Shown here: piece after piece, positions 28,126 to 45,089 of the stretch
Position numbering within the stretch: position 1 is the stretch's first letter
How the letters are laid out: each line of letters starts with the position of its first letter
IMG/VR virus record: IMGVR_UViG_3300027858_000001
Location: 1-45,089 of that record
DNA from: a virus
Reading direction: 5' to 3' (one strand)
DNA length: 45,089 nucleotides
Notes under the pieces: generated by a model
Seen by the model: the letters and a program-made list of their open reading frames with translations, nothing else
Database searches by the model: none
Told to the model about the DNA's origin: nothing
Program-made: the position numbers and the translations under genes

Positions 28126-30966
28126 TTATAAAAATTCTAATACTTCAATGTCAGCGCTACCCAACGTGAAGTCTATTGAAGATGTGGTGGAAAAACTTAT
28201 ACCAAAAATTTGAGCTACCCCCTGTGGCCTGACTTCTCGGATCATTGTCGGCGGAGCATGAGCATACCCGGTAGTGAGTACCTGAGTTGACTCCACATTT
28301 ATTGAGTTAATCCTCACATTAAACGTGACCGTGGTGGTGCCGAACGCTCCTGTACCCCTGATGTAATACTTAACCACCAACCGCGAGCTATCACTCTTCG
28401 GGTAGAAATTAGCAAAGTCATCGGTTAAGGATGTTGCTGCTGCCGCCGATCCTCGTCGATACAAGCGATGTTGTATTATTGACTCCCCCTGCTCGTTTTC
28501 ATACTTGAGCTGCTGACCCGCGACGTACCCAGCATGACTCGCGTAGAGCGCCAGCGCTGCTGTCCTGAAAGCGGTCTGGGAGGAGTTAGTCTGTGCTGGC
28601 CTTAGTGACGCAACACCACTATCACGAAAGCCTAACCACGCGTAGTCCGCTACTGCGTCGACCCATGGGAAAACTTTTTGCATCTGGTCCAATACTCTCC
28701 ACCAGGGGGCAGGGTAGTCGTTCTGGTACCCATCACTAGTAGCCCATGCCCCTGAAAGAATTGCTGTCCCACTGAACGCGGTACCATCTGCAATCGAGAT
28801 TTCGCCGGTATACGTGGTGTCAATCGTGACCACCGTGGTCGACGTGAACCCTGTTATCTTCGCCCGTCCACCATCCCAATCGGTTAAGAAACGACCGACA
28901 TCGCCTGCGACGAATGCTGCCCCCGCTGCAGTAGCGGTAACTGCAGCGCCACTGGTTGCAGATAAAGTCAGCGTTACCGCGTGAGTTTCCCCCATCTGCC
29001 ATGACTCGACGTTAGCCCATAGCCGGATCTGCCTGGTGGATGTGATTGATATAGCGTTGGCGATATCGATAGCCCCTCGCCAGATTGTGAAATGAGCATC
29101 GAGTTGCGACCGGGTTAGCGCGGGCACCCATGTATATCGTGCGTTGATCAGGTCGTTTCCGGGGCCAACACTATCCTGAGCACTGAATATATCGCACCCG
29201 GAGTCGATCAGACGTTGTGCGAATGTGCTCGTGGCCGCCAGATCAGCCGGACTGGGAGGTCCTATCATTATTGGCTTTCCATAGGACCGGAGCGAAAGAT
29301 CCGTGCCACTCACGAGAGTGACGTTCCCTGTGTATTGATTACTGAACTCAAACTCACCCGGTTCGTGTGAAATGTAAAACCCGTGAAATGAGTCGTAGTT
29401 GTTGAACTGAGCTATCAGGTCTGCCGCAACTTCGCGAGTACGATCTTGAGCGTTCGTCAATCGAGTCGTGAGAGTCAGACCATATCTCACTGGATCAGCC
29501 CCGCCTGCCGGGTTACCTGTGACTCCATCCCAGTATGAAAGCAAATCGCCCGTGAGAGCTGTGTCGCCATTCCTACCGAGGCCGAGGTATACGTGCATGT
29601 CTTGCTTTTCACACTCGCTCAAGATCACTTCGACCGGGTTGAAATTATCTACGTTCGGGTAGCCGGGTAGCAGTGTCTTCCAGAACGCACCCGTTTGGCT
29701 GGTGTCGTGGTCTGTAGGAAAACTGAACCCCGGTTGATAGAACCAGAATGATAGATACTCTACGTACGGTACGATTGCTGAGCGGATCCCCGCGCTCGCC
29801 ATCTCTCGGATCACCTCTCTTATGTATAGTTCGGTCATGTAGTTAGCAGCGCCATCCGACGACCGCTCGAAAACAGTGACATTTGGTGATAACCGTAACA
29901 GCTCTAACCACGCAGCCGTCGCATAATTTTTATAAGGGAATATGGTGTTATCGTTTTCCGCCATCTTCCTTTTCAGGGTCTGCTTGTCGTTACCCTCTAT
30001 AGGGGTAACAGCGATCTCAGATAAACTGCGAACCCTTACCCCACCATCTCCGGTTATGACTACCGTGCCCATCGTCTGGAACGTACCGGGCACCGGCGAA
30101 TCGACCAGGTAACTGCCTGGGGTAATGAGAGGACTCTCATAAAAAGCTGATGCAGCGAGGAAGGCGGTAGAGTCGTCGGTACCGTCTGCCAACGCCCCAA
30201 ACTGCTTGACGTTAGCCTGACCCGTTACAAACAGCCCGACAAACTCTATCGAAGGTACCGCAGTGGATTTGATCACACTACCGTTATCATCAGTAGCAGC
30301 GGTCACTGCACGCGAGAAGTACACATTACCCCCATCGGTACCTTTGCCTGCGGTGTGTTCAATGCAGAACACCAGCTGATCCACCCCGATACTAGCATCC
30401 GCTTTCATCGCGGCCACCGTCACAACTTTTCTAATGAAGTCGGACTCCACGAAACTACCGGGTAAGATCGAGGAAGGGTCAATGTTTTCCAGCCCCGTGA
30501 GATCCCCCCTCCACCGTAGTATCTGCAGAGACTCAGGGTCAGGCAGTGTCAGTGGTAATGCTCCCGAATAGGAGTCGCCTACCGCTGCCGATCGTGAAAG
30601 TGAATCTCTTAATTGCTGTATCAAGAATGTGAGGTGATCCATCTGATCTTCATGCACATCAGGAAAGAATCCGCCCTGTGAGCTGAACGCGGTCAGCTGG
30701 TTCTCGATATAGTTCGACCGAATATACCACTCAGCGCCTGTAGGGAGCGGACCGGCGATCCTCAGTATGCTGCCTCCCCCGTCAACCCCAATACCCGAAA
30801 CGGTGTAATCGGTGTCCACCGCGAGCAGCGTCTCACCCCCGGCGACATCGGTCTCGTAGACCTTAACCTGACTTTTATCTTTAATCCTGAAAGTGTACGA
30901 GAAAGTGTCCGTAACGTTGTTACCGATGTACGGTCCTGATGTGATGTTAGTCGTGTTTACAGTCAT
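28126..30966 (-). CDS. Tail fibre or tailspike with a putative glycoside-hydrolase-like central domain (946 aa)
   Basis: The N-terminal module (YIGNNVTDTFSYTFRIKDKSQVKVYE...DYTV...FPDVHEDQMDHLTFLIQQL) is common in phage fibre N-termini. FHGFYISHEPGEFEF resembles TIM-barrel hydrolase-like domains. Lies after the internal virion genes. Confidence 0.65.
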   Translation of the reverse strand: MTVNTTNITSGPYIGNNVTDTFSYTFRIKDKSQVKVYETDVAGGETLLAVDTDYTVSGIGVDGGGSILRIAGPLPTGAEWYIRSNYIENQLTAFSSQGGFFPDVHEDQMDHLTFLIQQLRDSLSRSAAVGDSYSGALPLTLPDPESLQILRWRGDLTGLENIDPSSILPGSFVESDFIRKVVTVAAMKADASIGVDQLVFCIEHTAGKGTDGGNVYFSRAVTAATDDNGSVIKSTAVPSIEFVGLFVTGQANVKQFGALADGTDDSTAFLAASAFYESPLITPGSYLVDSPVPGTFQTMGTVVITGDGGVRVRSLSEIAVTPIEGNDKQTLKRKMAENDNTIFPYKNYATAAWLELLRLSPNVTVFERSSDGAANYMTELYIREVIREMASAGIRSAIVPYVEYLSFWFYQPGFSFPTDHDTSQTGAFWKTLLPGYPNVDNFNPVEVILSECEKQDMHVYLGLGRNGDTALTGDLLSYWDGVTGNPAGGADPVRYGLTLTTRLTNAQDRTREVAADLIAQFNNYDSFHGFYISHEPGEFEFSNQYTGNVTLVSGTDLSLRSYGKPIMIGPPSPADLAATSTFAQRLIDSGCDIFSAQDSVGPGNDLINARYTWVPALTRSQLDAHFTIWRGAIDIANAISITSTRQIRLWANVESWQMGETHAVTLTLSATSGAAVTATAAGAAFVAGDVGRFLTDWDGGRAKITGFTSTTVVTIDTTYTGEISIADGTAFSGTAILSGAWATSDGYQNDYPAPWWRVLDQMQKVFPWVDAVADYAWLGFRDSGVASLRPAQTNSSQTAFRTAALALYASHAGYVAGQQLKYENEQGESIIQHRLYRRGSAAAATSLTDDFANFYPKSDSSRLVVKYYIRGTGAFGTTTVTFNVRINSINVESTQVLTTGYAHAPPTMIREVRPQGVAQIFGISFSTTSSIDFTLGSADIEVLEFL

Positions 30967-30968
30967 GG

Positions 30969-33900
30969 TTATTTACGCTCTGGTCCGAATAGGAATGAGT
31001 GCATGCTGGCGTCTTCACCTTCCACGAGAACGTCGTACAAGTGCTCCCCCGTGGCCCATGCCTGATTAACACCGGGGACGCCTACAGCAGCCCCGACAAA
31101 TTTACTGGAACCCTTCACCTGCCCCTTCGTGATATCTTCATCGGTGAACCCTCGTTTAACCAGTTCAGGTATTGACATGGTGCCTTGCTCAAGAACAGCA
31201 GCCAATGGTGTCATATTGTAACCGAATTCCCCTACCGATGCTGACGCCACATCACGGATGAAGGGGATCGACTGTGCAGGGAATAACGCCGTGTTGGTCA
31301 ACATCCGTTGTAATCGATCATCATCATCTTCAGGTTCTCCGAGTTCACCACGCATCATCATCTCGAATAACACCGGTATGGTGAATAGAAACATCGCTTT
31401 AGATGCCACGTTGGTGGTTGAGTATCTCCCCGATTTAGCCCCTTTCACAAGGTCCCTCTCCATGTTCCATAACGAACTGAAAAAGGTCATAAACATCGTG
31501 AGCATCCGGCCAGTCTCTGCTTGACCGCGCATGATCCTCGCCATATTCATGGTCGAGCCGGACCCCTGAACATTCTCGATAACCCAGTCCGCGTGTTGAT
31601 ATGCGCGCTTCTGATCTCCGTGCTCGCTCATCGACTTGATATACGCCGCGTGCCATGTGGGTACATCCACCATGTAAGTCTGGATCAACATGATGTGCTT
31701 CATCGATGTTTCTTGTGCTGCCTTCAGAAACGGTAGATTGCCTACCGTATTGAACGCATCCTTAACTTTCCGACCGGTCTTAATGTCCGCCGAGCTGGTG
31801 ATATTCGCCATCGCGTTCTTTATCTCACGGTCCATCGTGGTCGTGCGGTGCTTCATCACTTTGGAGTTTTCCATCGCGAAATCCAGCGAGTCTTTCATAC
31901 TGGCGGGACTCTTCAAGATACTACGCAATGCCTGGTAGACGGGCCCTATCCCCAGCTCAGCGATGGAGTTGGACAACCCTGATATCTGGATGATCCCCGT
32001 AGACGCCTTGAACCCCATCACACCAAGGGTGGTGCCGAAACGCAGTCGACCTAGTATATCGTCCCAGAACATTTTCACAGGCGCCTCACGGCCATCCTTG
32101 GCGATGTCATTGAGCCACGGCGACAGCTGTGCATACTCTTCTGGACCGAGCTTCGCACTGATGGCTTTAGCAACCCTGGAGTCATTGATCAGCTTATTAA
32201 CTTCACGAACGGTGTCGTGATGCGTGATGTAGTGAATGGTCTCCTGGAAGTGCGACGGCACCACATCCAGGCTCAACCGGATAGCATCATAAGCCCCTGT
32301 CCGCTCACTGGTAGCACTAGCAGTGACCGACGCCTGAATGCTACTGGTAGAACTGAACATTGATTCAGTTTGGGCATCCCGCCGATCTTCATTGAGCTTA
32401 GCTTTCTGTGATTGTTTGGGGTCATATTTGACCGGGTAGTACCCGCCGCGATACTCACCGAAAGGAGTGACCACCGGTACTGCTTCCACTTTCGGTGGAG
32501 CCAGTCCAGTGGTACGACGATGCACCTCTGCCAGTTGCGGGTACAGTTCGTCCATCTTGTCCCAAATTAGCTGCACCATATCCCAATCGCTTTTGGTCAT
32601 GTGCGCCAGGATCGCTTGTAACTGGGGATTATCGAGGGTAATCGACGCGTCCACATCGGGGTCAGCCCACTGTTCACCAAGTAACATCTTACGCAGGTTC
32701 CCCGTGTTACCAGTGTTCAGTGCCACTGCGAGCACCTGATGACCGAAGAGGTTATCCTCGATCTCAGGGATATACAGTTTCTGGTTGTGCCGTTTGATAT
32801 CTGCTTTACTGCGGTTCTGAATGGCGTTCATAACGTCTACGCCGGTCTGGTCCCACAACGCCTGTTCACTGTCATAGGCGTCAACGAACCCCTGAACCAA
32901 TATCTGATGGCTAATACCTGTGCGCTCTCCACCATCTAACCAGCTGGCCATGAAGGGGATCTTGGTCATCTGAGCCATCATCCAACGACCCCAGTGGGCA
33001 CCCTCAACAACAGTGGTACGACTGGTGCTGAACTTATCGTCAGACGCCTCATCCATGCTGTCCACCCAATTAGTGACCAGTTTGTCGAATGTGATCTGAT
33101 CCTCTAACCGGGTGATCTTGTTTGAATACCGTGCAACGTGTTCGATGTTCTTCAATGATTCGTCGACACCTTTCAGCGCTGCCGACGGCACCTCCTTCCA
33201 GTGGGTCACGTAAAGCTCATCGAGTACCTCGGGCGTGAGCACCAACCCTTCACCGTGAACCTCCATTCGGTCCTTGGCCCACATTGCGATGTTTTCGTTT
33301 TCCTTATCCACCGCCTTCAGGGTGGCGGATTTGCGGAATTCAAAGCGGTTCAGGATCTTGACGATCTGCCCCCAATGACCGCCGTCTGCTTTCATGATCT
33401 CTTCGCGAACAGATTTTTTAGAGTACCGAGCGACACGATCCACAATACCCTCGGTGGTTTCACGAGCTTTGGTCGCTTCCATCCCCAGGTAGTAATTCAC
33501 CACCTGGCGGCGTTTAGCTTCCATCGCCCCTTCCTTATTCCCCTCAGCGAGCATACGTGCAGACTCTTGAGCTGCGCGGATCTCCGCCTTGCGATACTTA
33601 CCGGGGTGAGTCTCACGGTACGACAGCTTGCCTATGCGCTCCTCTGCCACCGCCTTGATGGTAGCCCGATCAACCGTGGGGGTGCGTGACTGCCTAGCAA
33701 GTGCTTTCAGCTCTTTGAGTAGCAGCTTACCGCGTTCCTCGTTCATCACTGCAGCGTCTGCACGCGCTTCGAGGGTGCCATCGGTCATCACATCACCGTG
33801 ACGTTCCAGCATGATCTGCTGCGCCCGTGCGTCGGCTGCGTGTTCTATCTTCGGTGCGTTGATGAGTTCGCCCAACATCTCTGACCCGGAAGTGAACCCG

Positions 33901-36900
33901 AGCAGCCCTGCAGCTTCATCAGGGTGCAACCCTATACCACCCTTGGCAGTCATGCCTCGCAGCGGCGGCGGGATCGACACTGATTTACGACCGAGCTTGT
34001 CGACCTTCTCCTCGCTAACCTGGTCCTTCACCGTAGCGTGATCCAACTTGATGTCACCGTCGCGCAGGGTTGTCCGTGCGCGGTATACCGGCTCATCGCC
34101 AAGTGCGACCATCTGCTCATCAATGATGTCCTGCTTTTCCTCTTTCCACCATTCTTTAGTTTGATTGGTCAAGTGTCGGAGCATCTCATCACGCAGCGTC
34201 TCGGTCTGCTTGTCCTTGGTCTGTTCGACCTGCTGCTGGTACGCGTGGAACTCCTCCTCGGTCATACCCGCCATCGTCGCATCGGTGAACATTGGCTCGT
34301 GCTGTGCCCGTGTCTCTGCTGCTGCGATCTGCTCCTCTGTTGCCAGCAACCGGTCGAACACCTCACGCATCTCGGCGTCGAGATTGACGTTCAGCTTGCC
34401 CCGGAGCGACCGGTAGAGCTGGGTCAGCCATCGAGCGAACGTGCGGAACACGTTACGCAGCTCTACCGATGGGGCCTTGCCTTCCATCAGATAGGTCTCG
34501 AATCCCCGTGCGAACTGCTCATGCGCTGCCCGGCGAATCGCTGTATCCTTTGCCGGGTTGCCAGTGGTAGTCTGATCCAGGAACGCGACCACATCGTCTT
34601 CAGTGATGGGGCCATCTTTACGAGTGGAGCCTGCTTCTTGCCCCAGCACCTCAGTCGTATCACCCAGGTGTGTGTTAGCTTCTTTCGCAACATCGGCAGC
34701 GTTACGCTTGAACCACTCGTTGATGGTTTGTACGGTATCGCTACCAGTCTTCAGCTCCATCTCATACATGAAGTGAGCGAACTCGTGAACAAACGTGGAC
34801 AGATCCGCAGCCTCGGTCAACCGGATCACCGAGGTAGCAGGGTCGAAGGTGCCTCGTGTGTTCTGAAACAACAGTTGCGTCTGCTCTGCTGTAACTTGTT
34901 GGCGAGTTTTACCTTTACCGCTGGGATCGTACACTCTGATTTTCAGTCCAGCATCCTTCAGAACTTGCTTTGCTTCACTGGATAGACCGCGAGGTACTAC
35001 TGCCGTGTGAAACTCACTGAAACTCACTGGTCGTTGTATTTTAGTTTCAAAATAACTGGTTGGCAGTGCTACAAGGTACTCCGTTAAATCGTTGATCACT
35101 TGCCATGTTTCGGGGGTCATGTCGAACGTTTCAAGCACTTCTCTACGTCCACCCATTATCGCGGTGCCGGCGTCGTCGGCGTACCCCCACGACGACGCGT
35201 CGAATTTATAAAACGGTTTTAGTTTGTCGAGAGCATCCATGAACACCGTTTGGGATTCATCCTTAACCTTGGTCAGTTCCTCTTCAGTGATGATTTGGTC
35301 GCGGCGAGCCTGCACTTGCTTGATCGTTTTCATCTCGTTAGCGTATGCCGACCTGACGGATCCCGCACCGTAAAACGATGCCTCGCCGCCTTGCAACTTC
35401 TGCGTCATCGCTTTCACCACGTTGGTGAGGTTGTAATCCACGTACTTTCTGTTGCCGCTGGGGGTAAACCCTTTGAACAGCTTTTTACTCTTGACCATGC
35501 TGTTAAACTGATCAGTCGCCCATTGGTCGTACGCATCGCGTGTCTTTTTAACCCGCATCTTCTTATCGATGTCTGCTCGCAGCTGATGGGTATCGACCGC
35601 GCCGTGCTGCTTGAACCGGCGAACCTCTGCCTCGAAACCACGCAAATTACTGTCCTGGACTTCCCCTTCCTCCGTGAACCAGAGGTCAGCGTATCGCTCA
35701 GCTCGATCTGGACTCGCCTCTTCAGCATTTTTCAATATAGCGGTGTAATGTTGTTTCGCTATTTTCCGAAACTTATCACTACGAGAATCCGCGACATCTA
35801 GCTTTGCTGCTTTCCGAACTGTCGAACTGATCTTCTTGTTCTTCGGTTTGGGTGCTTTGTTTTGTTGTTGAAGCCATAAATACTGTGCTGCCGTAGATCG
35901 CTGAAAGCTCTCCGCTCCCCCTTGGCCCTCCATCGAGTCGATATCAAGATCATCCAGGTCCAGGTGTCGAAGCTCTCTTAACTGAAGGTTGATTTCATTG
36001 AACTTGTCGAGATCGATATCATAGGTCGCCCGAGGTTGACGAGGACTGTAAATGTCACTATCAAAAGTGCGCGCACGTTCAGAGTTGAGAATCGACGGAT
36101 CGGCTAGTAATGACACCTCACCGAACGACGTGAACTCTCCTTTATCAGTGCGAAGAGTAGCAAGGGATGGTGCCGCTAACCCACCCAAATCCGCTGCAGC
36201 CAGTATGTTCTCTGCGGACAGGTTATGTGTGACGATAAGGTTTTCATCTACAGACTGAGCCAGTAGATTAGCGGACCCGCTCTCATCAGGGTCAAACGCT
36301 GCATTGACTGATCGGGCATTCGACGCGTCATATATAGCAGTGTTAAGAACATCTGCCTCTTTAACCACGAATGAGTCATACCCGAGGCTGCGGATCGCTG
36401 CCTGCACAGGCAAGCTCTCCACGGTCTCCCAGTTTTCCATCGCTTCGTTGTCCGACATTTCAACGATCGTGTCCTTGGCTTGAGTAGCAGCATCGCCCTG
36501 GTCAACGCCTGTTTTCACCAGCTCATCGGTCAACGCCTGCTCAAACGCGGTGCTCTCCGACTCACTCCAGTCCAACGGATTGAACCGCTTCTCGTTCCTC
36601 AGTATCACCGGGTAGACGGTCGGTGACACCTCATCGCTTGCCTCCCCTCGCTGTTGAGAGAAGATGGTGGCGAACGCGCTCTCCGGCGTGAAAAACGTAT
36701 ACCCGCGCCCATGCCCCGCTTTACTCGGTTTGAACTCGTTAATGTCCCCGGTAGTGGCACCGTGATACATGATCGTGTTGGTGTCAAACCCCATCTCAGC
36801 GGCCCGCGTCATGCGGCCCTCTTGAGACATGTCCAGACCTTTATCCGCAGCGTTTATCCACTCACGGCCTTCACCGATGTCAACGCCTTCGTACCCTTCA

Positions 36901-38960
36901 GCGGCGGCCTGTTCGAGTACCTCCCCCTCTGCGATGGCGTCAGCCCTACCGGTCTGTGGCCCTTCAACGGTAAGCCCTGATTGAGTGTAAGCCTCTGTGA
37001 TCGAGATCCCGTTCTTCTTAGCATGAACAGTCGCCCACGCAGGTAAGAGCTGCGCCATCACCCCCGCGTTTTTAGGGGTGACCATACCGGTGTCGACCAG
37101 TTGACCCTTGAGCGACTCGTACATCTCCTGCGCTTCAACGTACGCGCTGGCATCTTTGCTGGCATCTTCGATCAGCGCATCAACAAACTTCTCGTGCTCT
37201 TTTGTTGCCTGCTCCTGACGAAGCGGTGAGATGGCGTCAGGGTCCATGGTCATACCCGGGCGCAGCGCATCGAAGTGCTCCGTGCCGCTGATCTCTGATG
37301 CAAATTTCTCAGTCGGAACCACGACATCGATATCCAGTACCGCCGCTTCCCGCGCCTGTTTCTGCAATAACTGTAACGCGGCATCCGATGCTATTTCATC
37401 CGCCGTCTTGCCTTGCAGATAAGTAGCTACCTGTTCACCGTCGATGTAAACGTTCTCGTTACCTTCACCGGTCACCCCGGAGACGAACTCCTCGAACTTA
37501 CCCTTGTTCCGTGCTTTCAACTTGTCGTTGGCAACGGCTGCGTTCAGTGAATCGATTTTCTTCTGGTCGATCTCGTTCAGTTCTTTTCTGCGATTAGCAT
37601 CCGACCGAGCGTGAATCGCTGTACCAATGCCACCAGGGATGATAGACGCCTGGAATCCTGTGACCGCTGCCTCGGCAACCCTGGGCACTGCCTCGGCCAT
37701 GTTGTCGAATACCTGCTCGAAGTCGTGATCGGTGAACGCACCATCGTCCATGAGCTTGACCACTTCCCCCATGCTCACGTTGGTGAACTCCTGGAACCCC
37801 TCGGTCGCACCTTCAACGAATAGCGCGCCGGCATACCGCCGACCTAACCGCTTCATCGCCTGTCGGCCTGTCTCGGTTCCAAGCGCTTCCATGACTTTCT
37901 TGCGGATCTTCGACTTCATCATCGGGTTGAACTTGCCACCGACCGCACCCATCGTCCCGCCGATCGCTGCGATACCGAGTGACTCCGCTGCAGCGTTAAT
38001 AACGCCCACCACTAGCGCACCGTACCCGGCAAGCTCAGGGTCTATGACATTACCATCGTCATCGGTCAGCGCTGCCAACTCGTTAAAGGCGATGCCTGAC
38101 TCAAGATCGAACGCGCCCTTAGCCGTTCCCACGCGAGCGCCGACACGAACCCCTACCGCTGCCCCTGCTATCGCGCCAGGAAGCGCCCCTGCCCCTGCAG
38201 CGGTCGCGCCAACTGCGGCACCGATCGCCCCGCCGGTGACACCACCACCTGCACCGAACTTAATCGACTCGGTGAAGATGTCTCCCATGATGGGTAGCAT
38301 CTCGGTAGTTGCCAGAGGCGTGTTCAGTATCGGACCGAAGTCTTCAATGGGGGACGCCATCTCCTCCTCGATCTCGCGCAGGCGTGCAACCTGGTCCTCG
38401 GTTAACGGATCCCCCATGCTGATGGAGTTCCACATCCCCACCTGACCCAAACGTGACGACTCTACCGCTAACTGGCCATGACCGAACGAATCCTTGACGG
38501 CCTGTCCGTAATCTTTGACATCATCGACCACCTCACCTGCCGTTTTCAAGGTGTCCTCAATGATCTGCATGACATCTATATCATCTTGAGCAATGATCGC
38601 ATTGTCGAAGTTGCTGACAAACTTAGCAGTGCCAGGACTCTTCTCAGTCATGGAGTCAAAGTCAACCTGGTCCAGCTTCAGCTTTTGCTCCATCGCTTCT
38701 GAGTCAGCTTCCACCGCGATCATCGGAGCGCCGGTCGCCGCACTGAGGTTCATCTTCTTGGCGTGCGCGTCGGGATCAACTTTGACTGCTTCACTGAAGT
38801 TCGCAATCTGACGGACCGGGTCAACCCCCGGCGCGGTTGTTGTTCCTATGTCCAGTGGTGCCAGATCCAGCGGAACGGGTGGTGCCACCCCTTCATCGAG
38901 TGGTTTTTCTTTGGCGATACCGAAAGCGCCGAAATCAACGTTCTCTAAATTTAATTCCAT
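30969..38960 (-). CDS. Giant internal virion/ejection protein with polyvalent-protein features (2663 aa)
   Basis: Continuous 7,992-nt ORF in the T7 gp16-equivalent position. Gly/Ala zipper-like hydrophobic region at aa 235-345 (37926-38258). MYHGATTGDINEFKPS...GYTFFTPESAF lies near aa 731 (about 36700-36770). HEFAH is at aa 1392 (34773-34787), followed by AHEQFARGFETYL. Hydrophobic C-terminal segments. Confidence 0.8.
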   Translation of the reverse strand: MELNLENVDFGAFGIAKEKPLDEGVAPPVPLDLAPLDIGTTTAPGVDPVRQIANFSEAVKVDPDAHAKKMNLSAATGAPMIAVEADSEAMEQKLKLDQVDFDSMTEKSPGTAKFVSNFDNAIIAQDDIDVMQIIEDTLKTAGEVVDDVKDYGQAVKDSFGHGQLAVESSRLGQVGMWNSISMGDPLTEDQVARLREIEEEMASPIEDFGPILNTPLATTEMLPIMGDIFTESIKFGAGGGVTGGAIGAAVGATAAGAGALPGAIAGAAVGVRVGARVGTAKGAFDLESGIAFNELAALTDDDGNVIDPELAGYGALVVGVINAAAESLGIAAIGGTMGAVGGKFNPMMKSKIRKKVMEALGTETGRQAMKRLGRRYAGALFVEGATEGFQEFTNVSMGEVVKLMDDGAFTDHDFEQVFDNMAEAVPRVAEAAVTGFQASIIPGGIGTAIHARSDANRRKELNEIDQKKIDSLNAAVANDKLKARNKGKFEEFVSGVTGEGNENVYIDGEQVATYLQGKTADEIASDAALQLLQKQAREAAVLDIDVVVPTEKFASEISGTEHFDALRPGMTMDPDAISPLRQEQATKEHEKFVDALIEDASKDASAYVEAQEMYESLKGQLVDTGMVTPKNAGVMAQLLPAWATVHAKKNGISITEAYTQSGLTVEGPQTGRADAIAEGEVLEQAAAEGYEGVDIGEGREWINAADKGLDMSQEGRMTRAAEMGFDTNTIMYHGATTGDINEFKPSKAGHGRGYTFFTPESAFATIFSQQRGEASDEVSPTVYPVILRNEKRFNPLDWSESESTAFEQALTDELVKTGVDQGDAATQAKDTIVEMSDNEAMENWETVESLPVQAAIRSLGYDSFVVKEADVLNTAIYDASNARSVNAAFDPDESGSANLLAQSVDENLIVTHNLSAENILAAADLGGLAAPSLATLRTDKGEFTSFGEVSLLADPSILNSERARTFDSDIYSPRQPRATYDIDLDKFNEINLQLRELRHLDLDDLDIDSMEGQGGAESFQRSTAAQYLWLQQQNKAPKPKNKKISSTVRKAAKLDVADSRSDKFRKIAKQHYTAILKNAEEASPDRAERYADLWFTEEGEVQDSNLRGFEAEVRRFKQHGAVDTHQLRADIDKKMRVKKTRDAYDQWATDQFNSMVKSKKLFKGFTPSGNRKYVDYNLTNVVKAMTQKLQGGEASFYGAGSVRSAYANEMKTIKQVQARRDQIITEEELTKVKDESQTVFMDALDKLKPFYKFDASSWGYADDAGTAIMGGRREVLETFDMTPETWQVINDLTEYLVALPTSYFETKIQRPVSFSEFHTAVVPRGLSSEAKQVLKDAGLKIRVYDPSGKGKTRQQVTAEQTQLLFQNTRGTFDPATSVIRLTEAADLSTFVHEFAHFMYEMELKTGSDTVQTINEWFKRNAADVAKEANTHLGDTTEVLGQEAGSTRKDGPITEDDVVAFLDQTTTGNPAKDTAIRRAAHEQFARGFETYLMEGKAPSVELRNVFRTFARWLTQLYRSLRGKLNVNLDAEMREVFDRLLATEEQIAAAETRAQHEPMFTDATMAGMTEEEFHAYQQQVEQTKDKQTETLRDEMLRHLTNQTKEWWKEEKQDIIDEQMVALGDEPVYRARTTLRDGDIKLDHATVKDQVSEEKVDKLGRKSVSIPPPLRGMTAKGGIGLHPDEAAGLLGFTSGSEMLGELINAPKIEHAADARAQQIMLERHGDVMTDGTLEARADAAVMNEERGKLLLKELKALARQSRTPTVDRATIKAVAEERIGKLSYRETHPGKYRKAEIRAAQESARMLAEGNKEGAMEAKRRQVVNYYLGMEATKARETTEGIVDRVARYSKKSVREEIMKADGGHWGQIVKILNRFEFRKSATLKAVDKENENIAMWAKDRMEVHGEGLVLTPEVLDELYVTHWKEVPSAALKGVDESLKNIEHVARYSNKITRLEDQITFDKLVTNWVDSMDEASDDKFSTSRTTVVEGAHWGRWMMAQMTKIPFMASWLDGGERTGISHQILVQGFVDAYDSEQALWDQTGVDVMNAIQNRSKADIKRHNQKLYIPEIEDNLFGHQVLAVALNTGNTGNLRKMLLGEQWADPDVDASITLDNPQLQAILAHMTKSDWDMVQLIWDKMDELYPQLAEVHRRTTGLAPPKVEAVPVVTPFGEYRGGYYPVKYDPKQSQKAKLNEDRRDAQTESMFSSTSSIQASVTASATSERTGAYDAIRLSLDVVPSHFQETIHYITHHDTVREVNKLINDSRVAKAISAKLGPEEYAQLSPWLNDIAKDGREAPVKMFWDDILGRLRFGTTLGVMGFKASTGIIQISGLSNSIAELGIGPVYQALRSILKSPASMKDSLDFAMENSKVMKHRTTTMDREIKNAMANITSSADIKTGRKVKDAFNTVGNLPFLKAAQETSMKHIMLIQTYMVDVPTWHAAYIKSMSEHGDQKRAYQHADWVIENVQGSGSTMNMARIMRGQAETGRMLTMFMTFFSSLWNMERDLVKGAKSGRYSTTNVASKAMFLFTIPVLFEMMMRGELGEPEDDDDRLQRMLTNTALFPAQSIPFIRDVASASVGEFGYNMTPLAAVLEQGTMSIPELVKRGFTDEDITKGQVKGSSKFVGAAVGVPGVNQAWATGEHLYDVLVEGEDASMHSFLFGPERK

Positions 38961-40654
38961 TATCTCGCCTGGTTGTAAACGCTAAGAATATTTTCCGCTG
39001 ACACTTCTCGGTTATTGGCCTCTAACGCACCGATAACTTGCTCCATTGCATCTAGCGGAATACCTTCAAGCACTGAGAGATTTGCGCCGGTAATGGGCAC
39101 CCCTGCCGACGATAACACCTGTGCCGTCATGTCGATATCTACTATGTCCAAGTCGGTGAGATCGCGGGTGCTGTCAAATATGAACCCGCTTTTAACCCAT
39201 TCACCTGCTATACCCTGAACCACCGCAGTGTACTCAGCGGTTGTGAGGTTAACGCCGCCTTTCGCTTCCGATTGGGCAGCCACCTCGGTATCGATCAACG
39301 AATAAAACTGACTGACCCTCTTCTGGGTGTTCGTGTCCCATTTAGACTTCTTACCGAACAACTGTTGCGCTGCGAGGTTGGTCTCACTGGCGCGGGTTCT
39401 ACCGGTAGCACTTTCAAGCCTGTCAACATCGGACCCGCCTTCGCGAGCTACCATTATCTTCTTAACGAGTTTGTCGTAGTCAGGCTTAGCCAGCTGATCA
39501 GCGTACTGTGCCGGGTCCATATCTTTCAAAAGATTACTGTCATCAGGTGCCATCATCAGTTCGCCGAATAACACCTTATCCGTGACTACCGGCTTACCTT
39601 TGATCAGCGATGCCTTTTGAACTGCCGATAGCCGCTCCCACCCTTCAGGGTCTTGAGCCTGGAACGTTGTTGCGGTATTGCCGGGTAATAGTACATGGTC
39701 CTGAGCCTCGTGGTACGCGTCCACCTGCGCCTCGCTCTCAGCCCGCCTTGCCAGGCTGAACCTCGACATCGCTTCTCCCATAACTTTTTTCTGAACATCG
39801 ACATCCTTAATCTTCTCGACCTCAGCTATGATGTCCTCACGACTGTCAAAGTTACGCACCAACCGTTGGCCTTCTGTGACCGCGTACATGGCATCGCGCT
39901 GAGTCTTCTCGGTGCGGGTCTTGGTCTCGATCCGCTTGGTGAGGTTGATCTTATCAGGACCCTCCAGATACTTACCGAGGGTGTCCATCGACTTTCGCCC
40001 ATCAGCAGCACTGTTCGCCGTGGCAGCGGTGATGGCTGCATCCGCTACCGACGCATCGAACGTCTGCAGCTTCTCTGCGAGTGCTTCAGCGCTGATCCCC
40101 GATAACTTCGCTGCGTCCGCTATAGCAAGCCGACCGATCTCACGCTGTTCGGTCAACGCCTTTGGTTGGTTCCAGTACAGTGATGAAGTCTCGACCGCGT
40201 TCTCTACCTGCGCTCCCAGGGTGGACAGCTCCCACACTTGAGCGCCCTTACTCGCGTGACGCGCGATGTCTGAGGTGCCACGGGTAACATGATTGTCCGC
40301 TATCTTGCTGAACATCTGGCGCGCGCGGTCGGACTCGATCGACCCTTCATACTTTTTCTGCAGGTCCTGCAGCGCCTTACCCGCAGCCTCGCCCCCTTCA
40401 AAGGCGTTCTGACCTTGAGTGTTGAAGTACCCGTTATCGGCGTTAAAGAACAAATCGTTCTTCTCGCGCTCGAACTGTACCAGTGTATCCTCGGCGACAG
40501 TGGTATCGACCCGCTGTCCCATCGCATTGAGCGCCCCCGCCAACCGAGTAACCCCCACACCTATTGAGGGGGACGCGGGCCCGGCCGTGGCGCGGGGTTG
40601 CCGAACAACCTGTGACCCGACCTGTGACTGACCGTATTGAGCAATTTTTGGCAT
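38960..40654 (-). CDS. Internal virion protein (564 aa)
   Basis: Start placed at ATG 40654 (MPKIAQYGQSQV), 1 nt after the upstream TAA. The longer ORF would overlap the upstream gene. Lies between a small hydrophobic core protein and the giant protein. Confidence 0.5.
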   Translation of the reverse strand: MPKIAQYGQSQVGSQVVRQPRATAGPASPSIGVGVTRLAGALNAMGQRVDTTVAEDTLVQFEREKNDLFFNADNGYFNTQGQNAFEGGEAAGKALQDLQKKYEGSIESDRARQMFSKIADNHVTRGTSDIARHASKGAQVWELSTLGAQVENAVETSSLYWNQPKALTEQREIGRLAIADAAKLSGISAEALAEKLQTFDASVADAAITAATANSAADGRKSMDTLGKYLEGPDKINLTKRIETKTRTEKTQRDAMYAVTEGQRLVRNFDSREDIIAEVEKIKDVDVQKKVMGEAMSRFSLARRAESEAQVDAYHEAQDHVLLPGNTATTFQAQDPEGWERLSAVQKASLIKGKPVVTDKVLFGELMMAPDDSNLLKDMDPAQYADQLAKPDYDKLVKKIMVAREGGSDVDRLESATGRTRASETNLAAQQLFGKKSKWDTNTQKRVSQFYSLIDTEVAAQSEAKGGVNLTTAEYTAVVQGIAGEWVKSGFIFDSTRDLTDLDIVDIDMTAQVLSSAGVPITGANLSVLEGIPLDAMEQVIGALEANNREVSAENILSVYNQAR

Positions 40655-40655
40655 A

Positions 40656-41246
40656 TTAAAATCCGCGTTGTTGTTCTTTCGGAACAGAGCTTCCCAGCCC
40701 CCCGGTTGTGACCGCTGCACTCTCCGGGGTAAACCATTTATCTGCCACTCCGGTGTTCGCGAGATCCGCCGCACCACCGAAAAGGGTATTGGTCGCTCTG
40801 AGGGTGCTATCACTTCGTGCGTTGTCCCCCTGACTACGGGTCAAACGCGCCTCACTCTGTGAAGCATTGAACTGCTGATCACCGGTATCACGGATACGCA
40901 ACGCATCCACTTCGCCCAGCTCGATGGTATCGGTCTGCAACTGTAACGCTGACCCAGAGTTTAGAGAGACTCCCGACGCTCCCAGCTGTGCTGTCTGTTT
41001 AGCCAGTAGCTCTGCTGTGATCCGTCGCCGCTTACCTTCTTCCTCGGTTGCCGCGTTACGGGTCCGCTGAGCTTCGTCCTCAGCCAGTCGAGCGTTATAT
41101 TTCGCTACGCCTTCCTGATATTTTCCTTCCTGTACTTGCTGGTATGCTGTGCCTACTGCAGCCGCTGCTGCAATGTAAGGTGATGCGGTCGATATGGCGC
41201 TACCTACATACCCCGCCCCGGCTGCTAGTGCTGCGTACCCACACAT
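40656..41246 (-). CDS. Internal virion protein with a hydrophobic Gly/Ala-rich N-terminus (196 aa)
   Basis: CAGGAG RBS. Begins MCGYAALAAGAGYVGSAISTASPYIAAAAAVGTAY, followed by a charged helical region. Confidence 0.45.
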   Translation of the reverse strand: MCGYAALAAGAGYVGSAISTASPYIAAAAAVGTAYQQVQEGKYQEGVAKYNARLAEDEAQRTRNAATEEEGKRRRITAELLAKQTAQLGASGVSLNSGSALQLQTDTIELGEVDALRIRDTGDQQFNASQSEARLTRSQGDNARSDSTLRATNTLFGGAADLANTGVADKWFTPESAAVTTGGLGSSVPKEQQRGF

Positions 41247-41247
41247 A

Positions 41248-41709
41248 TCAATTACTCCTGTTCATGTGAAACTCATAAAACATCTCGCCGTTGACACCGA
41301 TGGGCATGGCCTCGCTAAAGGTGAACCCCAACCGGCGCAACCACCGGACGCTCGATGCGTTGTCTGCGTGAACGTGATTACTGATCCGTGGGCAAATATC
41401 TAACATCGCTTCGATCACTTTCGGTGTCACAGTCATCAGCTCCCGCCTTGCTTTGAACATGCCATTGGTAGTCAGCATCCACAGCGTTCCTTCCCCTATT
41501 AGAATATCACGTATACCTAACCCGTATATTCCCAGGGGGACCCCATCGCCACGCACCACCGTGAGGTAGTCCGACGAAACCATCCCGATATTCATCGCCT
41601 GAGAGGGTGTGTGGTTGTGAGACGCCATCACCTCGGCGGCATCTGCAGCACGCATATTCGCTGCTATGTAATCCGCGTCCGCTTGTGTGGGTTGACTGAA
41701 AGTGATCAT
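41248..41709 (-). CDS. GNAT-like internal-virion-protein-A-type protein (153 aa)
   Basis: ATGA overlap with the gp12-like gene. ...NASSVRWLRRLGFTF resembles the acetyltransferase-fold C-terminus. Sits in the position of T7 gp13 / phiKMV internal virion protein A. Confidence 0.4.
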   Translation of the reverse strand: MITFSQPTQADADYIAANMRAADAAEVMASHNHTPSQAMNIGMVSSDYLTVVRGDGVPLGIYGLGIRDILIGEGTLWMLTTNGMFKARRELMTVTPKVIEAMLDICPRISNHVHADNASSVRWLRRLGFTFSEAMPIGVNGEMFYEFHMNRSN

Positions 41710-44024: not shown

Positions 44025-44669
44025 TTATCTCCTTGCGTTTACGTACTCGCTGTTCTCTTGCGTCGCATATTGTTCATTGGCGTCTTGCGCCTCCGCGCTA
44101 GCGAGGTACTGCTGGTACAGTGTATATGAATCGTTTCGCAGGGATCTGCCTGCTTCTGACCCCACAATGGGTATCGCTATCTCAGCCGCCAACAGGTGTG
44201 ATAGCGCGATAATAAATGTGGGAGAGAACAGATTGGTATCGGTAGCCTCCACCGCGTAATCGATACGTAGATCTGTGTCGTTACTACCGATAACCTTATT
44301 GCCGTCGATGTTGAGGATCTCATAGGGGATCTGCACACGAAGCTCCCCCGGGGTAACGTACAGATCCTCGCGGTAGCTACGCGTAAATGACGTATCAATC
44401 AGGGTTATTTCTTCCTGTTCCCCCACCAACCGATGAATCTTCATGCAGTCCGATGGGTACTGATACGCGTATCCCCAATTGAATATCTCATCGGTTAGTA
44501 GTGCTAACGGCTTGATCGAGCGAGCGAACTGCCATGTGCCCGTTTGCAGCAGCATGTCCCGCATCAACGGGTATCTCAGCTTGCACGTCTGTGCCTGCAC
44601 GCTCGATTCATCCAGCGAGTTTATGCTCCCAGCCCTGATGTTGCCCAGCGCCAGGTTGCATATCTCCAC
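44025..44669 (-). CDS. Tail tubular protein A / adaptor (T7 gp11-like, 214 aa)
   Basis: The N-terminus ICNLALGNIRAGSINSLDESSVQAQTCKLRY...TGTWQFA parallels the gp11 N-terminal motif (NDILASIGEPPVSTLE...GWTF). GTG start. Confidence 0.55.
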   Translation of the reverse strand: MEICNLALGNIRAGSINSLDESSVQAQTCKLRYPLMRDMLLQTGTWQFARSIKPLALLTDEIFNWGYAYQYPSDCMKIHRLVGEQEEITLIDTSFTRSYREDLYVTPGELRVQIPYEILNIDGNKVIGSNDTDLRIDYAVEATDTNLFSPTFIIALSHLLAAEIAIPIVGSEAGRSLRNDSYTLYQQYLASAEAQDANEQYATQENSEYVNARR

Positions 44670-44990: not shown

Positions 44991-45089
44991 CACCGATTCT
45001 ACGTTTTTATTGCCAAGGAAACTGACACCATCAATATCCTTCTTGTTCTCGGCAACTTCATCGATGTCCTTCTTCAACGCGGTGACCCG
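44991..45089. repeat. Terminal direct repeat, copy 2 (identical to 1-99)
   Basis: Exact 99-bp identity with the first 99 bases. Confidence 0.95.

Follow-up and report, generated by a model that had tools for sequence, protein, structure and literature searches.

The locus raises the question of what a podovirus encodes in a single protein of 2,663 residues at the place where T7-like phages encode gp16, and whether such a protein could carry enzymes into the host together with the DNA. The window analysed here (IMG/VR record IMGVR_UViG_3300027858_000001, 45,089 nt in full) repeats its first 99 bases at its end, indicating a circular assembly with 44,990 bp of unique sequence. An earlier note, made from the letters alone, had described one unbroken 7,992-nt ORF taking up about 18% of the genome. 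The frame is indeed open, on the minus strand (30969-38960; 2,663 aa plus stop, ATG start, no internal stops), whereas the plus strand of this interval, when translated, is interrupted by stops throughout; it accounts for 17.8% of the 44,990-bp circle, and all sequence strings quoted in the note are found in its product. Over aa 244-2651 the protein matches PHROG 9880, a family of unknown function, at E = 3.5e-290. Our reading is that it is probably an ejection protein of the IVP-D type (the T7 gp16 position) of a BPP-1/epsilon15-type podovirus, built as a three-part chassis for the delivery of effectors.

30969..38960, minus strand: the whole ORF, probable giant ejection protein at the IVP-D/gp16 position with polyvalent architecture (ORF and translation)

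The genomic neighbourhood provides the first part of the answer. On the minus strand the genes run in the order of homologs of T7 gp11, gp12, gp13 and gp14, a helical protein of gp15 size, the ORF and a tailspike, and the gp16 position proposed earlier thus holds according to both PHROG and Pfam, with the ORF between gp14/gp15-type genes and the tailspike.

44025..44669, minus strand: tail tubular protein A, gp11-like (phrog_394, E = 1.1e-41)
41706..44021, minus strand: tail tubular protein B, gp12-like (phrog_376, E = 8.3e-205)
41248..41799, minus strand: gp13-like internal virion protein (phrog_308, E = 8.9e-36)
40656..41246, minus strand: gp14-like internal virion protein (phrog_418, E = 5.8e-29)
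38960..40813, minus strand: upstream neighbour at the gp15 (IVP-C) position, helical and without cysteine (PHROG profiles)
28126..30966, minus strand: downstream tailspike; gp17-like N-terminal adaptor, DUF4434 domain (profile matches)

The gp14-like protein scores under the cut-off of Pfam T7_gp14, and the gp15-position neighbour, which has no Pfam or PDB match, aligns position 1 of its PHROG profile with residue 54, its real start probably being the ATG at 40654. The stop codon of this upstream gene overlaps the start codon of the ORF by one base (TAATG), only 2 nt separate the stop codon of the ORF from the start of the tailspike gene, and the ORF is translationally coupled to both neighbours. 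The likeness to T7 is confined to this tail and internal-protein module and does not extend to the rest of the genome, in which both strands are coding and no phage RNA polymerase was found among the large ORFs scanned; the nearest isolates by tblastn are BPP-1-like and Vibrio podoviruses.

A link by homology to the IVP-D family comes from the conserved core, most of which forms a helical chassis.

30969..34340, minus strand: all-helical chassis of the probable ejection protein, aa 1541-2663 and stop, with homology to BPP-1 Bbp10 (tblastn, HMM, AlphaFold2)
31341..31412, minus strand: conserved C-terminal hydrophobic helix, aa 2517-2540 (hydrophobicity scan, consensus of relatives)

Residues 1362-2663 match BPP-1 Bbp10 (E = 5e-117 by tblastn, 870 bits with the core HMM) as well as proteins of Pseudomonas phage AF and of Caulobacter, Xanthomonas and Vibrio podoviruses, and 930 homologs are found in a large protein collection. 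AlphaFold2 predicts aa 1345-2544 to be nearly all helix, with several helices of 35-47 residues (mean pLDDT 80.8), and the core has 75 structural matches in BFVD at E <= 0.001; where hydrophobic C-terminal helices had been noticed before, we find the one at aa 2517-2540. Bbp10, with which this core is strongly homologous, is listed as an IVP-D homolog by Hardies et al. 2016 (PMC4819975), and epsilon15 gp17 is a member of the same family. Family traits shared here are the place of the gene, which follows gp13-, gp14- and gp15-like genes and is itself followed by the fibre/spike gene, and an all-helical, cysteine-free core of ~1,300 aa, compared with 1,318 aa for T7 gp16. Neither T7 gp16 nor N4 gp50 gave a significant match to the core profile in hmmsearch or hhalign, so that the link to gp16 rests on synteny and on the published stepwise HMM matching. 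Unlike T7 gp16, the protein has no lytic transglycosylase domain, a feature that varies across the wider IVP-D family; Pfam and PHROG searches revealed neither a family of this kind, in agreement with what had been noted, nor a lysozyme. Unlike the IVP-D family, it bears ~1,370 extra N-terminal residues with LPD22, hydrophobic segments and enzymatic cargo. The whole protein contains no cysteine, and the same holds for 93 of 98 long relatives and for T7 gp15/gp16 and N4 gp50/gp51, as against a cysteine content of 1.0-1.7% in the replication proteins of the same phage. Together with the helical core, this lack of cysteine speaks indirectly for a protein that would be packaged and ejected. In the literature we found no experimental evidence for packaging of this protein or its BPP-1-like relatives; in the BPP-1 cryo-EM paper, mass spectrometry identified only two capsid proteins.

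At the other end of the protein lies a second conserved region, whose alignments to relatives stop abruptly.

36909..38960, minus strand: conserved N-terminal module, aa 1-684, ending in VLEQ at 681-684 (homolog alignments)
38526..38795, minus strand: LPD22 domain, aa 56-145 (Pfam PF18834, 67.1 bits, cut-off 28.6)
37926..38255, minus strand: Gly/Ala-rich, glycine-zipper-like hydrophobic segments, aa 236-345 (composition, GxxxG counts, Kyte-Doolittle)

Most of the length of this module is aligned by 102 retrieved proteins, residue 684 being a recurrent end of BLAST alignments to relatives, and LPD22 is found in most homologs among the 120 matches listed. The zipper-like segment recognised earlier is real: the run from aa 236 to 345 is 25% Gly and 25% Ala with ~9 overlapping GxxxGxxxG matches, hydrophobic Kyte-Doolittle windows fall at aa 241-277 and 305-336, and Pfam DUF6861 matches aa 218-277 with 34.7 bits. 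A hydrophobic segment within the first 600 aa is present in 85 of 98 long relatives.

Between the two conserved regions lie the domains that we regard as cargo.

36255..36863, minus strand: cargo 1, ART-PolyVal-type ADP-ribosyltransferase-like domain, aa 700-902 (Pfam PF18760)
34863..36254, minus strand: cargo 2, PBECR5 module, aa 903-1366 (Pfam PF18814, 58.2 bits, cut-off 25)

The first of these takes in a conserved N-terminal helix (KGLDMSQEGRMTRAAEMGFDT), the strings IMYHGATTGDINEFKPS at aa 730, GYTFFTPESAFATIF at aa 753 and VYPVILRNEKRFNP at aa 782, by which an ART-PolyVal block had been suspected, and a C-terminal tail AAFDPD...LLAQ. The suspicion is borne out at the borderline: PF18760 gives 34.3 bits on the isolated segment aa 700-902 and 27.7 in the full protein, the cut-off being 31.2, and each of the 16 relatives in the alignment is matched by the family model (best E = 2.8e-32). 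The active site of PolyVal ARTs is H-Y-D, with His on strand 1, Tyr on strand 2 and Asp on strand 5 (PMC5512222). Here H733 is shared by all 27 relatives and D878 by 16 of them, and R883/S884 vary little or not at all. F756 and F767 align with diphtheria-toxin Y54 and Y65; of the 27 relatives, 14 have F at position 756, 9 have Y and 3 have W, and 22 have Tyr at position 767. An ART profile run against PDB sequences returned 23 matches, all of them diphtheria-toxin or PARP-type ARTs and all sub-threshold (E = 0.03-0.4). AlphaFold2 models the segment with low confidence (pLDDT 35-79), and Foldseek with this low-confidence model found no significant match in the PDB. On sequence grounds cargo 1 is a predicted ADP-ribosyltransferase.

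Cargo 2 gives an identity to what the earlier note had left unnamed as a further conserved-looking block ('IVTHNLS'), namely IVTHNLSAENILAAADLGGLAAPSLA at aa 909, which is part of PBECR5, a predicted RNase module. The Pfam model spans aa 906-1094 of a conserved unit of ~465 aa that ends in LLFQ. A cargo query (aa 700-1368) retrieved 3,607 proteins at E <= 0.001 from a representative library, the alignments falling mainly on the PBECR5 module among the matches listed. For PBECR5 a conserved His close to the N-terminus and a conserved Ser/Thr are expected (PMC5512222); H912 (97%) and N913 are conserved and present in this module, and S932 and S972 are conserved. All near-invariant residues of the family are retained in this copy, the invariant ones including H912, N913, D969, Y971, R974, E1193, R1203, E1305, K1307 and R1310. 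The module is modelled at a pLDDT of ~96; a Foldseek search of the PDB, run on a model larger than the domain itself, gave nothing at E <= 0.001, and the matches listed (50 of 270) include no BECR protein. To our knowledge, neither ART-PolyVal nor PBECR5 has been characterised experimentally.

It is conceivable that these domains have decayed and persist as non-catalytic ballast, binding modules or spacers in a purely structural ejection protein, much as the PBECR of Mu MuF is inactive according to Iyer et al. (PMC5512222). The sub-threshold ART score in the full-protein scan, the phenylalanines at 756 and 767, the latter a position at which most relatives have Tyr, and the poor ART model would all fit such a decay. 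However, the ART domain retains H733, D878 and R883/S884, position 756 is Phe in about half of its own family, and no near-invariant PBECR5 residue has been lost. Moreover, in diphtheria toxin Tyr-to-Phe changes at the NAD-stacking positions are largely tolerated. Finally, the absence of cysteine extends to the cargo, an indication that passage through the tail has been a selective constraint on this part as well. We therefore consider decay of the cargo unlikely.

Directly downstream of the cargo, the conserved core opens with a putative peptidase.

34341..34862, minus strand: zincin-like HExxH...E domain, opening the conserved core, aa 1367-1540 (invariant residues, AlphaFold2, hhalign)
34773..34787, minus strand: HEFAH motif, aa 1392-1396 (motif and conservation)
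34479..34523, minus strand: HEQFARGFETYLMEG, aa 1480-1494, helix with a candidate third metal ligand (conservation)

HEFAH at aa 1392 is the sole HExxH of the protein, and AHEQFARGFETYLMEGKAPS follows at aa 1479. Far from being fortuitous, the motif is unchanged across 61 relatives, some with as little as 30% identity (H1392, E1393 and H1396, together with H1480, E1481, E1488, Y1490 and E1493), as is the downstream HEQFARGFE. AlphaFold2 lays the domain out as strand-strand-helix(HExxH)...helix(HEQFARGFE), with HEFAH in a helix at 1387-1405 and E1481, E1488 and E1493 in a helix at 1469-1493. The canonical zincin fold has three strands before the active-site helix; two short ones are predicted here, at aa 1370-1373 and 1378-1381, the residues before them being of low confidence or outside the model. 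Pfam offers only sub-threshold matches (DUF6782, M3, M91, M78) and leaves the MPTase-PolyVal model unmatched, a PDB sequence-profile search with the domain returned no peptidase, and Foldseek of the 1,200-aa core against the PDB gave nothing at E <= 0.001. The strongest indirect tie comes from hhalign, which aligns the domain with the compact DUF6782-like putative metallopeptidase domain of one relative, P0010 (82% probability, E = 1e-5). The zincin assignment made earlier thus stands as to motif, invariance and predicted topology, which point to such a fold, and does not extend to a significant match with a curated metallopeptidase family or a solved structure, and hence we call the domain zincin-like. 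In 13 of 94 relatives the HExxH and HEQFAR helices are separated by a second insert of ~130-400 aa.

This domain could also be viewed as a peptidase that breaches the envelope, cutting peptidoglycan or lipoprotein in place of the T7 gp16 transglycosylase, in a protein that would act mainly in the periplasm. It occupies the N-terminus of the conserved core just as the transglycosylase does in T7 gp16, no muralytic domain is detectable in the ORF or its gp15-position neighbour, relatives carry the GenBank labels 'lysin' or 'lysis protein', and a role of this kind has been proposed by the phi24B authors for the metallopeptidase domain of gp47 (10.64898/2026.04.10.717836). On the other hand, the 'lysin/crystallin' labels find no Pfam match here, and relatives insert whole domains of a cytoplasmic type, ART for example, within the HExxH domain itself. 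The well-known peptidoglycan metallopeptidases M23 and M15 lack HExxH, and families of this type are unmatched in the protein. An envelope-breaching function thus appears improbable to us.

What sets the cargo apart from the flanking modules is that it is exchanged. In orthologs with 55-68% core identity the same slot holds Zeta_toxin, RadC, GGDEF, Kinase-PolyVal, MuF_C, PBECR1 or GNAT domains, LPD23 with a DUF6782-like domain, or ParB_N with ART. The slot boundaries carry a hydrophobic-hydrophobic-x-Gln motif that coincides with the homology breakpoints.

36909..36920, minus strand: junction VLEQ, aa 681-684, between N-terminal module and cargo (homology breakpoints)
36255..36266, minus strand: junction LLAQ, aa 899-902, between ART and PBECR5 (homology breakpoints)
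34863..34874, minus strand: junction LLFQ, aa 1363-1366, between PBECR5 and core (homology breakpoints)

If the modules are separated at these junctions, the phage prohead protease, acting during capsid maturation, might do so in place of the HExxH domain. A protease-like gene is indeed encoded at 1800-2441 (prohead-protease-like; phrog_458, E = 1.1e-52), the junction motif lies at a constant distance upstream of the core in ~100 of 111 relatives, and hydrophobic-x-Gln resembles the L/I-x-E rule of T4, whose gp21 trims Alt and internal proteins at Leu/Ile-x-Glu sites. Nevertheless, the capsid proteins of BPP-1 are reported to be uncleaved, and it is the invariant HExxH domain that directly adjoins the best conserved junction, so that we give this possibility little weight. 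Finally, that the protein is no internal virion protein at all, but a tail-associated lysin or fibre or a late non-structural toxin, as labels on relatives such as 'lysin containing a beta/gamma crystallin motif', 'lysis protein' and 'coil containing protein' might suggest, is hardly credible in view of its gene lying between internal virion protein genes and the tailspike, its all-helical core, its complete lack of cysteine, the absence of any lysozyme, crystallin or fibre domain in Pfam and the published status of Bbp10 as IVP-D (PMC4819975).

From the position, domain content, conservation, ortholog cassette exchange and lack of cysteine observed here, we infer how this delivery chassis may be packaged, ejected, catalytically active and processed. 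Its three parts would be the N-terminal module (aa 1-684) with LPD22 and the glycine-zipper hydrophobic segments, the cargo slot (aa 685-1366) with the ART-PolyVal-like domain and the 465-aa PBECR5 predicted RNase module, and the cysteine-free helical core of ~1,300 aa (aa 1367-2663) with the zincin-like domain first and a hydrophobic helix near its end. A few copies would be packaged in the capsid core alongside the gp14- and gp15-like proteins; upon infection they would pass through the tail as unfolded chains before the DNA does. A trans-envelope conduit would form with the help of the helical core and the hydrophobic segments, and the cargo domains would arrive in the cytoplasm, where they could transfer ADP-ribose onto host or defence proteins and cut RNA. 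The zincin-like domain would most likely cut at the hydrophobic-hydrophobic-x-Gln junctions and thereby free the modules; this is the least certain step, the cleavage role of the motif being purely conjectural.

A bolder version of the model, possible in our eyes though doubtful, sees in the protein a plug-and-play injector whose HExxH domain frees junction-delimited cassettes after ejection, and in PBECR5 a new enzyme fold, for which thousands of matching proteins in a representative library, a pLDDT of 96 and the lack of a solved structural neighbour would speak. If this were true, close relatives would differ in the free enzymes that they deliver to the cytoplasm ahead of all phage gene expression, these including an ART, an RNase, a Zeta-type kinase, a diguanylate cyclase, an acetyltransferase and a JAB peptidase.

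Several known systems resemble this arrangement in part. Closest in domain content are the polyvalent proteins of phages and conjugative elements (Iyer, Burroughs, Anand, de Souza and Aravind 2017; PMC5512222), with which the protein shares a giant multidomain make-up encoded among virion genes, the combination of LPD22 with a predicted ART assigned to the H-Y-D PolyVal type, a predicted RNase of the PBECR group and a domain with HExxH, at least two unrelated effector-type domains (ART-PolyVal and PBECR5, both predicted) and extensive domain shuffling among orthologs. Iyer et al. predict that polyvalent proteins are co-delivered with DNA and autoprocessed by their metallopeptidase, a zincin-like hub that is frequent though not obligatory (PMC5512222). 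In contrast to those described, the HExxH domain here matches no MPTase-PolyVal or other curated peptidase model, and the effectors are not free strings of domains but sit in a fixed slot on a 1,300-aa IVP-D-type helical chassis. The N4 virion RNA polymerase gp50, likewise giant and cysteine-free, is packaged in the virion and ejected into the cell, and is described in the literature as an enzyme housed within an IVP-D homolog that has a metallopeptidase-like HExxH domain (PMC5512222, PMC4819975); its cargo is an RNA polymerase, whereas here an ART and an RNase are predicted, and hhalign aligned the HExxH stretch only (3.9% probability, non-significant). Stx phage phi24B, also a podovirus, encodes gp47, a polyvalent protein of 2,811 aa with LPD domains. 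Proteomics has detected it in virions, and the phi24B authors put it forward as an ejection protein and describe its MuF-C domain as a metallopeptidase (10.64898/2026.04.10.717836); likened here by description, it differs in its LPD domains (LPD5, LPD1 and LPD38) and is a member of the F116 structural group. T4 Alt and P1 DarB/DdrB are head-packaged enzymes that are injected with the DNA and modify the host or protect the DNA, but they are stand-alone proteins of myovirus heads and no part of an ejection chassis that spans the envelope. Alt, which undergoes processing prior to packaging, is an ADP-ribosyltransferase of the R-S-E class, as opposed to the H-Y-D/E class. By analogy only, polymorphic and MARTX toxins also combine a constant delivery part with exchangeable effector cassettes and short conserved junctions, and in MARTX toxins a built-in protease frees the effectors; these are, however, secreted bacterial toxins, and no homology is claimed.

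The protein is thus a clear new representative of a type described before (Iyer 2017; Hardies 2016). Polyvalent proteins and IVP-D homologs with cytoplasm-bound domains have been published, and no new principle emerges here; the value of the locus lies in a well-defined member with concrete predictions. The targets of ART-PolyVal and PBECR5 and the role of the conserved HExxH domain are directly testable with it, and the chassis with its junctions could be tested as a carrier of chosen proteins into bacteria. Above all, the locus is a clean natural example of a constant ejection chassis with differing enzymes at one slot in close relatives. Since proteins injected with the phage DNA act before phage transcription, such enzymes would be prime candidates for first-strike counter-defence or host takeover.

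The giant protein is encoded, as the earlier note had claimed, by a single unbroken reading frame at 30969-38960; the frame lies on the minus strand and has 2,663 codons and a stop codon, and every string quoted from it there was found in the translation (at aa 236, 730, 753, 782, 909, 1392 and 1479); a plus-strand reading of the same interval was ruled out, as it contains stop codons throughout. Because bases 1-99 of the window are an exact repeat of 44991-45089, the assembly closes into a circle of 44,990 unique bp, of which the giant gene occupies 17.8%, in agreement with the earlier estimate of about 18% of the genome. Its start codon overlaps the stop codon of the gene before it, the tailspike gene begins 2 nt past its own stop, and the structural operon spans the circular junction, with the terminase, portal, protease and major capsid genes also lying on the minus strand beyond it.

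Genes surrounding the giant ORF
44025-44669, minus strand: tail tubular protein A, gp11-like
41706-44021, minus strand: tail tubular protein B, gp12-like
41248-41799, minus strand: gp13-like gene
40656-41246, minus strand: gp14-like gene
38960-40813 (start probably at 40654), minus strand: helical protein at the gp15 position
28126-30966, minus strand: tailspike, directly after the giant ORF in gene order
after the tailspike in minus-strand order, minus strand: tail assembly chaperone, then amidase

The T7-like setting proposed for this gene held for the tail and internal-protein module but not beyond it. No single-subunit RNA polymerase was found among the window ORFs of at least 400 aa that were scanned, and the window genes occupy both strands, with primase, exonuclease, a gp2.5-like SSB, DNA polymerase and a SNF2 helicase on the opposite one; T7 likeness is thus confined to that module, and despite it the phage is not an autographivirus. 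The first 25 kb gave no nucleotide match among 50,697 phage records. At the protein level, the nearest isolates are the Vibrio phages 1.021.A/B/C, PS25B.1 and MZH0603, which share ~60% identity across 63-65% of the query; the remoter matches, limited to aa ~1362-2663, include Bordetella BPP-1 (Bbp10), Pseudomonas AF and phages of Caulobacter, Xanthomonas, Nostoc and Octadecabacter.

Several other genes of this phage merit a remark. With its listed GTG start, the gene at the gp15 position shares 158 nt with the gene upstream; since PHROG profiles match its product from residue 54, which corresponds to profile position 1, the true start is probably the ATG at 40654. A muralytic domain in this protein was considered and rejected, the PHROG label "endolysin" being accompanied by neither a Pfam nor a PDB match. 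In the tailspike, aa 1-127 form a gp17-like N-terminal adaptor and aa 383-658 a DUF4434 domain (50 bits); the protein also weakly matches tail-spike and EPS-depolymerase PHROG families and is probably a polysaccharide-degrading spike. The SNF2-type helicase ORF (22331-24817, plus strand) contains a LAGLIDADG domain at aa 236-283, and its N-terminal ~380 aa have their PHROG families in common with aa ~90-450 of the terminase (861 aa, 6564-9149, minus strand), which points to an intein or homing endonuclease inserted in each of the two genes.

The giant protein itself is built of recognizable modules.

Pfam domains of the giant protein
aa 56-145: LPD22, 67.1 bits (cut-off 28.6)
aa 218-277: DUF6861, over the Gly-rich run, 34.7 bits (cut-off 28)
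aa 730-871: ART-PolyVal, 34.3 bits on the segment and 27.7 in the full protein (cut-off 31.2)
aa 906-1094: PBECR5, 58.2 bits (cut-off 25)

Over aa 1100-2663 Pfam returned nothing except a chance-level Peptidase_M3 match across the HExxH (E = 0.012), and phmmer with the whole protein gave chance-level matches only among PDB sequences; the whole protein falls in PHROG family 9880, of unknown function. When the full protein was compared by BLAST with 120 listed homologs, its N-terminal module could be aligned to about residue 684 and its core from about residue 1366-1369, and the stretch between them varied from protein to protein. Proteins with a core 55-68% identical to this one carry in the slot, by precomputed and rerun Pfam assignments, Zeta_toxin, RadC-JAB, LPD23 with a DUF6782-like HExxH domain, GGDEF, Kinase-PolyVal, ParB_N, ART-PolyVal, MuF_C, PBECR1 or GNAT. 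Relatives take up insertions at two further sites. Between the HExxH and HEQFARGFE helices (aligned to aa 1396-1480 of the giant protein), 13 of 94 relatives, for example P0016, P0041, P0066 and P0077, carry ~130-400 extra residues, including an ART domain in P0041 and P0077; the other site is near residue 1633. Homologs of aa 1340-2663 number 930, and some relatives and some phages possess little beyond this core (~1,340-1,370 aa). At one metagenomic locus (L004, 7480-13535) the giant gene falls into several ORFs: the N-module has 697 aa, ART+PBECR5 form a separate ORF of 732 aa, and two small ORFs and the core make up the rest. An A-run frameshift parts cargo from core there, which may reflect faulty assembly or a genuine split. 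The relative P0121 was rejected as a stand-alone ART+PBECR5 gene, since its cargo/core break is an A-run frameshift on its contig and so may stem from faulty assembly.

The homology breakpoints coincide exactly with three motifs of the form hydrophobic-hydrophobic-x-Gln.

Junction motifs
36909-36920, minus strand: VLEQ (aa 681-684), module boundary
36255-36266, minus strand: LLAQ (aa 899-902), module boundary
34863-34874, minus strand: LLFQ (aa 1363-1366), module boundary

About 100 of 111 relatives, whatever their cargo, have [LFIVM]-x-Q 21-29 residues upstream of an ST-x-x-HExxH anchor; PBECR5 modules, in the sequences reaching that far, terminate in (L/V/I)(L/F)FQ (F in 63 of 64, Q in 45 of 56), and ART-PolyVal domains close with AAFDPD...LLAQ. 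A role of hydrophobic-hydrophobic-x-Gln as a universal punctuation of giant polyvalent proteins was discarded, as it occurred 1,047 times against 1,081 in shuffled sequences. Since the loose motif is not enriched and only the form [LIVMF][LF][AF]Q is (~1.8-fold, among the listed examples mostly at ART/PBECR5 module ends), we regard it as a feature of module ends. These motifs could be cleavage sites, recombination joints or merely conserved joints, and if cuts do occur, the prohead protease remains a rival candidate for making them, alongside the metallopeptidase that has been proposed to autoprocess polyvalent proteins (Iyer et al. 2017, PMC5512222).

An ART-like block near aa 731 had been suggested from the sequence, and this was supported by the Pfam score of the segment and by an alignment of 27 related segments across aa 700-902, in which H733 and R883 are invariant and S884 nearly so; position 878 is Asp in 16 of the 27, and Asn or Glu in six more. 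All 16 members of a profile built from such domains match Pfam ART-PolyVal, and its 23 matches among PDB sequences are all diphtheria-toxin or PARP-class ADP-ribosyltransferases, at E values of only 0.03-0.4, with YHG aligned over toxin H21 and two aromatic positions over toxin Y54 and Y65. The family is defined by a His in strand 1, a Tyr in strand 2 and an Asp in strand 5 (Iyer et al. 2017, PMC5512222). Here F756 occupies the strand-2 position, which is Phe in 14, Tyr in 9 and Trp in 3 of the 27 segments, and the next conserved Tyr, present in 22 of the 27, is replaced by F767. In diphtheria toxin, Tyr-to-Phe changes of the stacking tyrosines are largely tolerated. The AlphaFold2 model of this segment is poor (pLDDT 35-79). 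We conclude that aa 700-902 represent a genuine ART-PolyVal family member, whose catalysis is predicted.

The block beginning "IVTHNLS..." that the earlier note had singled out opens a conserved unit of ~465 aa (aa 903-1366, window positions 34863-36254), roughly twice as long as the Pfam PBECR5 model and modelled at pLDDT ~96. Every near-invariant residue of 109 homologs is kept in the giant protein, among them H912, N913, G926, G927, P931, S932, G947, D969, Y971, S972, P973, R974, P976, E1193, G1198, R1203, Y1303, F1304, E1305, K1307, R1310, E1316 and F1317. An exhaustive search of aa 700-1368 against 1.84 billion representative proteins matched 3,607 proteins at E <= 0.001 and 626 at E <= 1e-30; the best 150 of the 3,607 align mainly over the PBECR5 module, and most are 2,000-6,000 aa long. 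Among plasmids the cargo was found in four Vibrio megaplasmids only, and among deposited phages in three records only, which match just its C-terminal half. The C-terminal half of the PBECR5 unit (aa ~1120-1366) also aligns alone in some proteins. Foldseek with the 669-aa cargo model gave no PDB match at E <= 0.001, and the assignment of PBECR5 as a predicted RNase therefore rests on the Pfam family and the inference of Iyer et al. A rival, less probable reading is that the cargo is catalytically dead.

The zincin proposed at the head of the core (aa 1367-1540) stood as far as conservation goes. Across 61 aligned homologs, with identities as low as 30%, no variation is seen at H1392, E1393 and H1396 or at H1480, E1481, E1488, Y1490, E1493 and P1497, and the flanking ADLST and HEQFARGFE are nearly invariant; HEFAH is the only HExxH in the giant protein, and an HExxH is present in all relatives whose alignment covers the site, including four that BLAST aligned downstream of it only. 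In the AlphaFold2 model of aa 1345-2544 (mean pLDDT 80.8, pTM 0.61), two short strands are followed by the HExxH helix, a variable, partly disordered insert and a helix bearing the invariant Glu residues. The claim found no significant match in Pfam or PDB, however: no peptidase was among the PDB sequence matches of the HExxH-region profile, Foldseek with the 1,200-aa core model returned no PDB match at E <= 0.001, and a Pfam scan of 29 alignment members placed metallopeptidase families (DUF6782, M3, M91, M78) below threshold only, DUF6782 in 4 of the 29 with a best E of 0.0012. The best link found runs through the relative P0010, whose cargo slot holds a compact domain, LSTLLHEVQHAIQERENFARGG, scoring 23.6 bits on DUF6782 ("putative metallopeptidase") and aligning with the HExxH profile at an hhalign probability of 82% (E = 1e-5); a PDB sequence search with it gave no matches. 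For these reasons we call the domain "zincin-like", and we consider it fairly probable that it is a true zincin-fold metalloenzyme. That it serves to breach the envelope remains a competing account of its role.

The core is almost wholly helical in the AlphaFold2 model. Against predicted viral structures, Foldseek gave 75 matches at E <= 0.001, uncharacterised or named after cargo ("Large polyvalent protein associated domain", "ART-PolyVal-like", "Nuclease", "N-acetyltransferase", "MuF C-terminal", "crystallin motif"), one being a "structural protein" of a Tenacibaculum phage. The core HMM scores BPP-1 Bbp10 at 870 bits; a literature search found no virion proteomics for Bbp10. Neither hmmsearch nor hhalign detected anything significant between the core and T7 gp16, T7 gp15, N4 gp50 or N4 gp51, and T7 IVP-D has been linked to such proteins only via stepwise joining of subgroup HMMs (Hardies et al. 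2016, PMC4819975). These four proteins, N4 gp50 with its 3,500 aa included, are free of cysteine, and so are all 2,663 residues of the giant protein, cargo domains included, and 93 of its 98 relatives longer than 1,800 aa. In the same phage, cysteine makes up 1.0-1.7% of replication proteins and 0.26-0.72% of portal, capsid, tube and spike proteins; at 0.3%, eight would be expected in the giant protein. This fits selection on a protein that would cross the tail channel and periplasm unfolded.

Taken together, we argue that the giant protein is best explained as an IVP-D-type ejection protein doubling as an effector carrier, a reading grounded in its observed position, homology, domain content, cassette exchange and cysteine pattern. 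It would be packaged, ejected and cleaved, and its domains would be catalytically active; these steps draw support from N4 gp50, from the autoprocessing proposal of Iyer et al. and from phi24B gp47, a 2,811-aa polyvalent protein detected in virions by proteomics (bioRxiv 10.64898/2026.04.10.717836). A last rival, that the giant protein does not belong to the virion, is very unlikely.

Polyvalent proteins, and IVP-D homologs with cytoplasm-bound cargo, have already been published, and the giant protein adds a clearly delineated further member to these concepts. Apparently unstated in the relevant papers are the fixed cargo slot with its Gln-terminated junctions, the PBECR5 module as a structural orphan extending over 465 aa in full, the uncatalogued HExxH domain heading a BPP-1-type chassis, and a lack of any cysteine throughout the family, which may provide a usable signature for ejected proteins.
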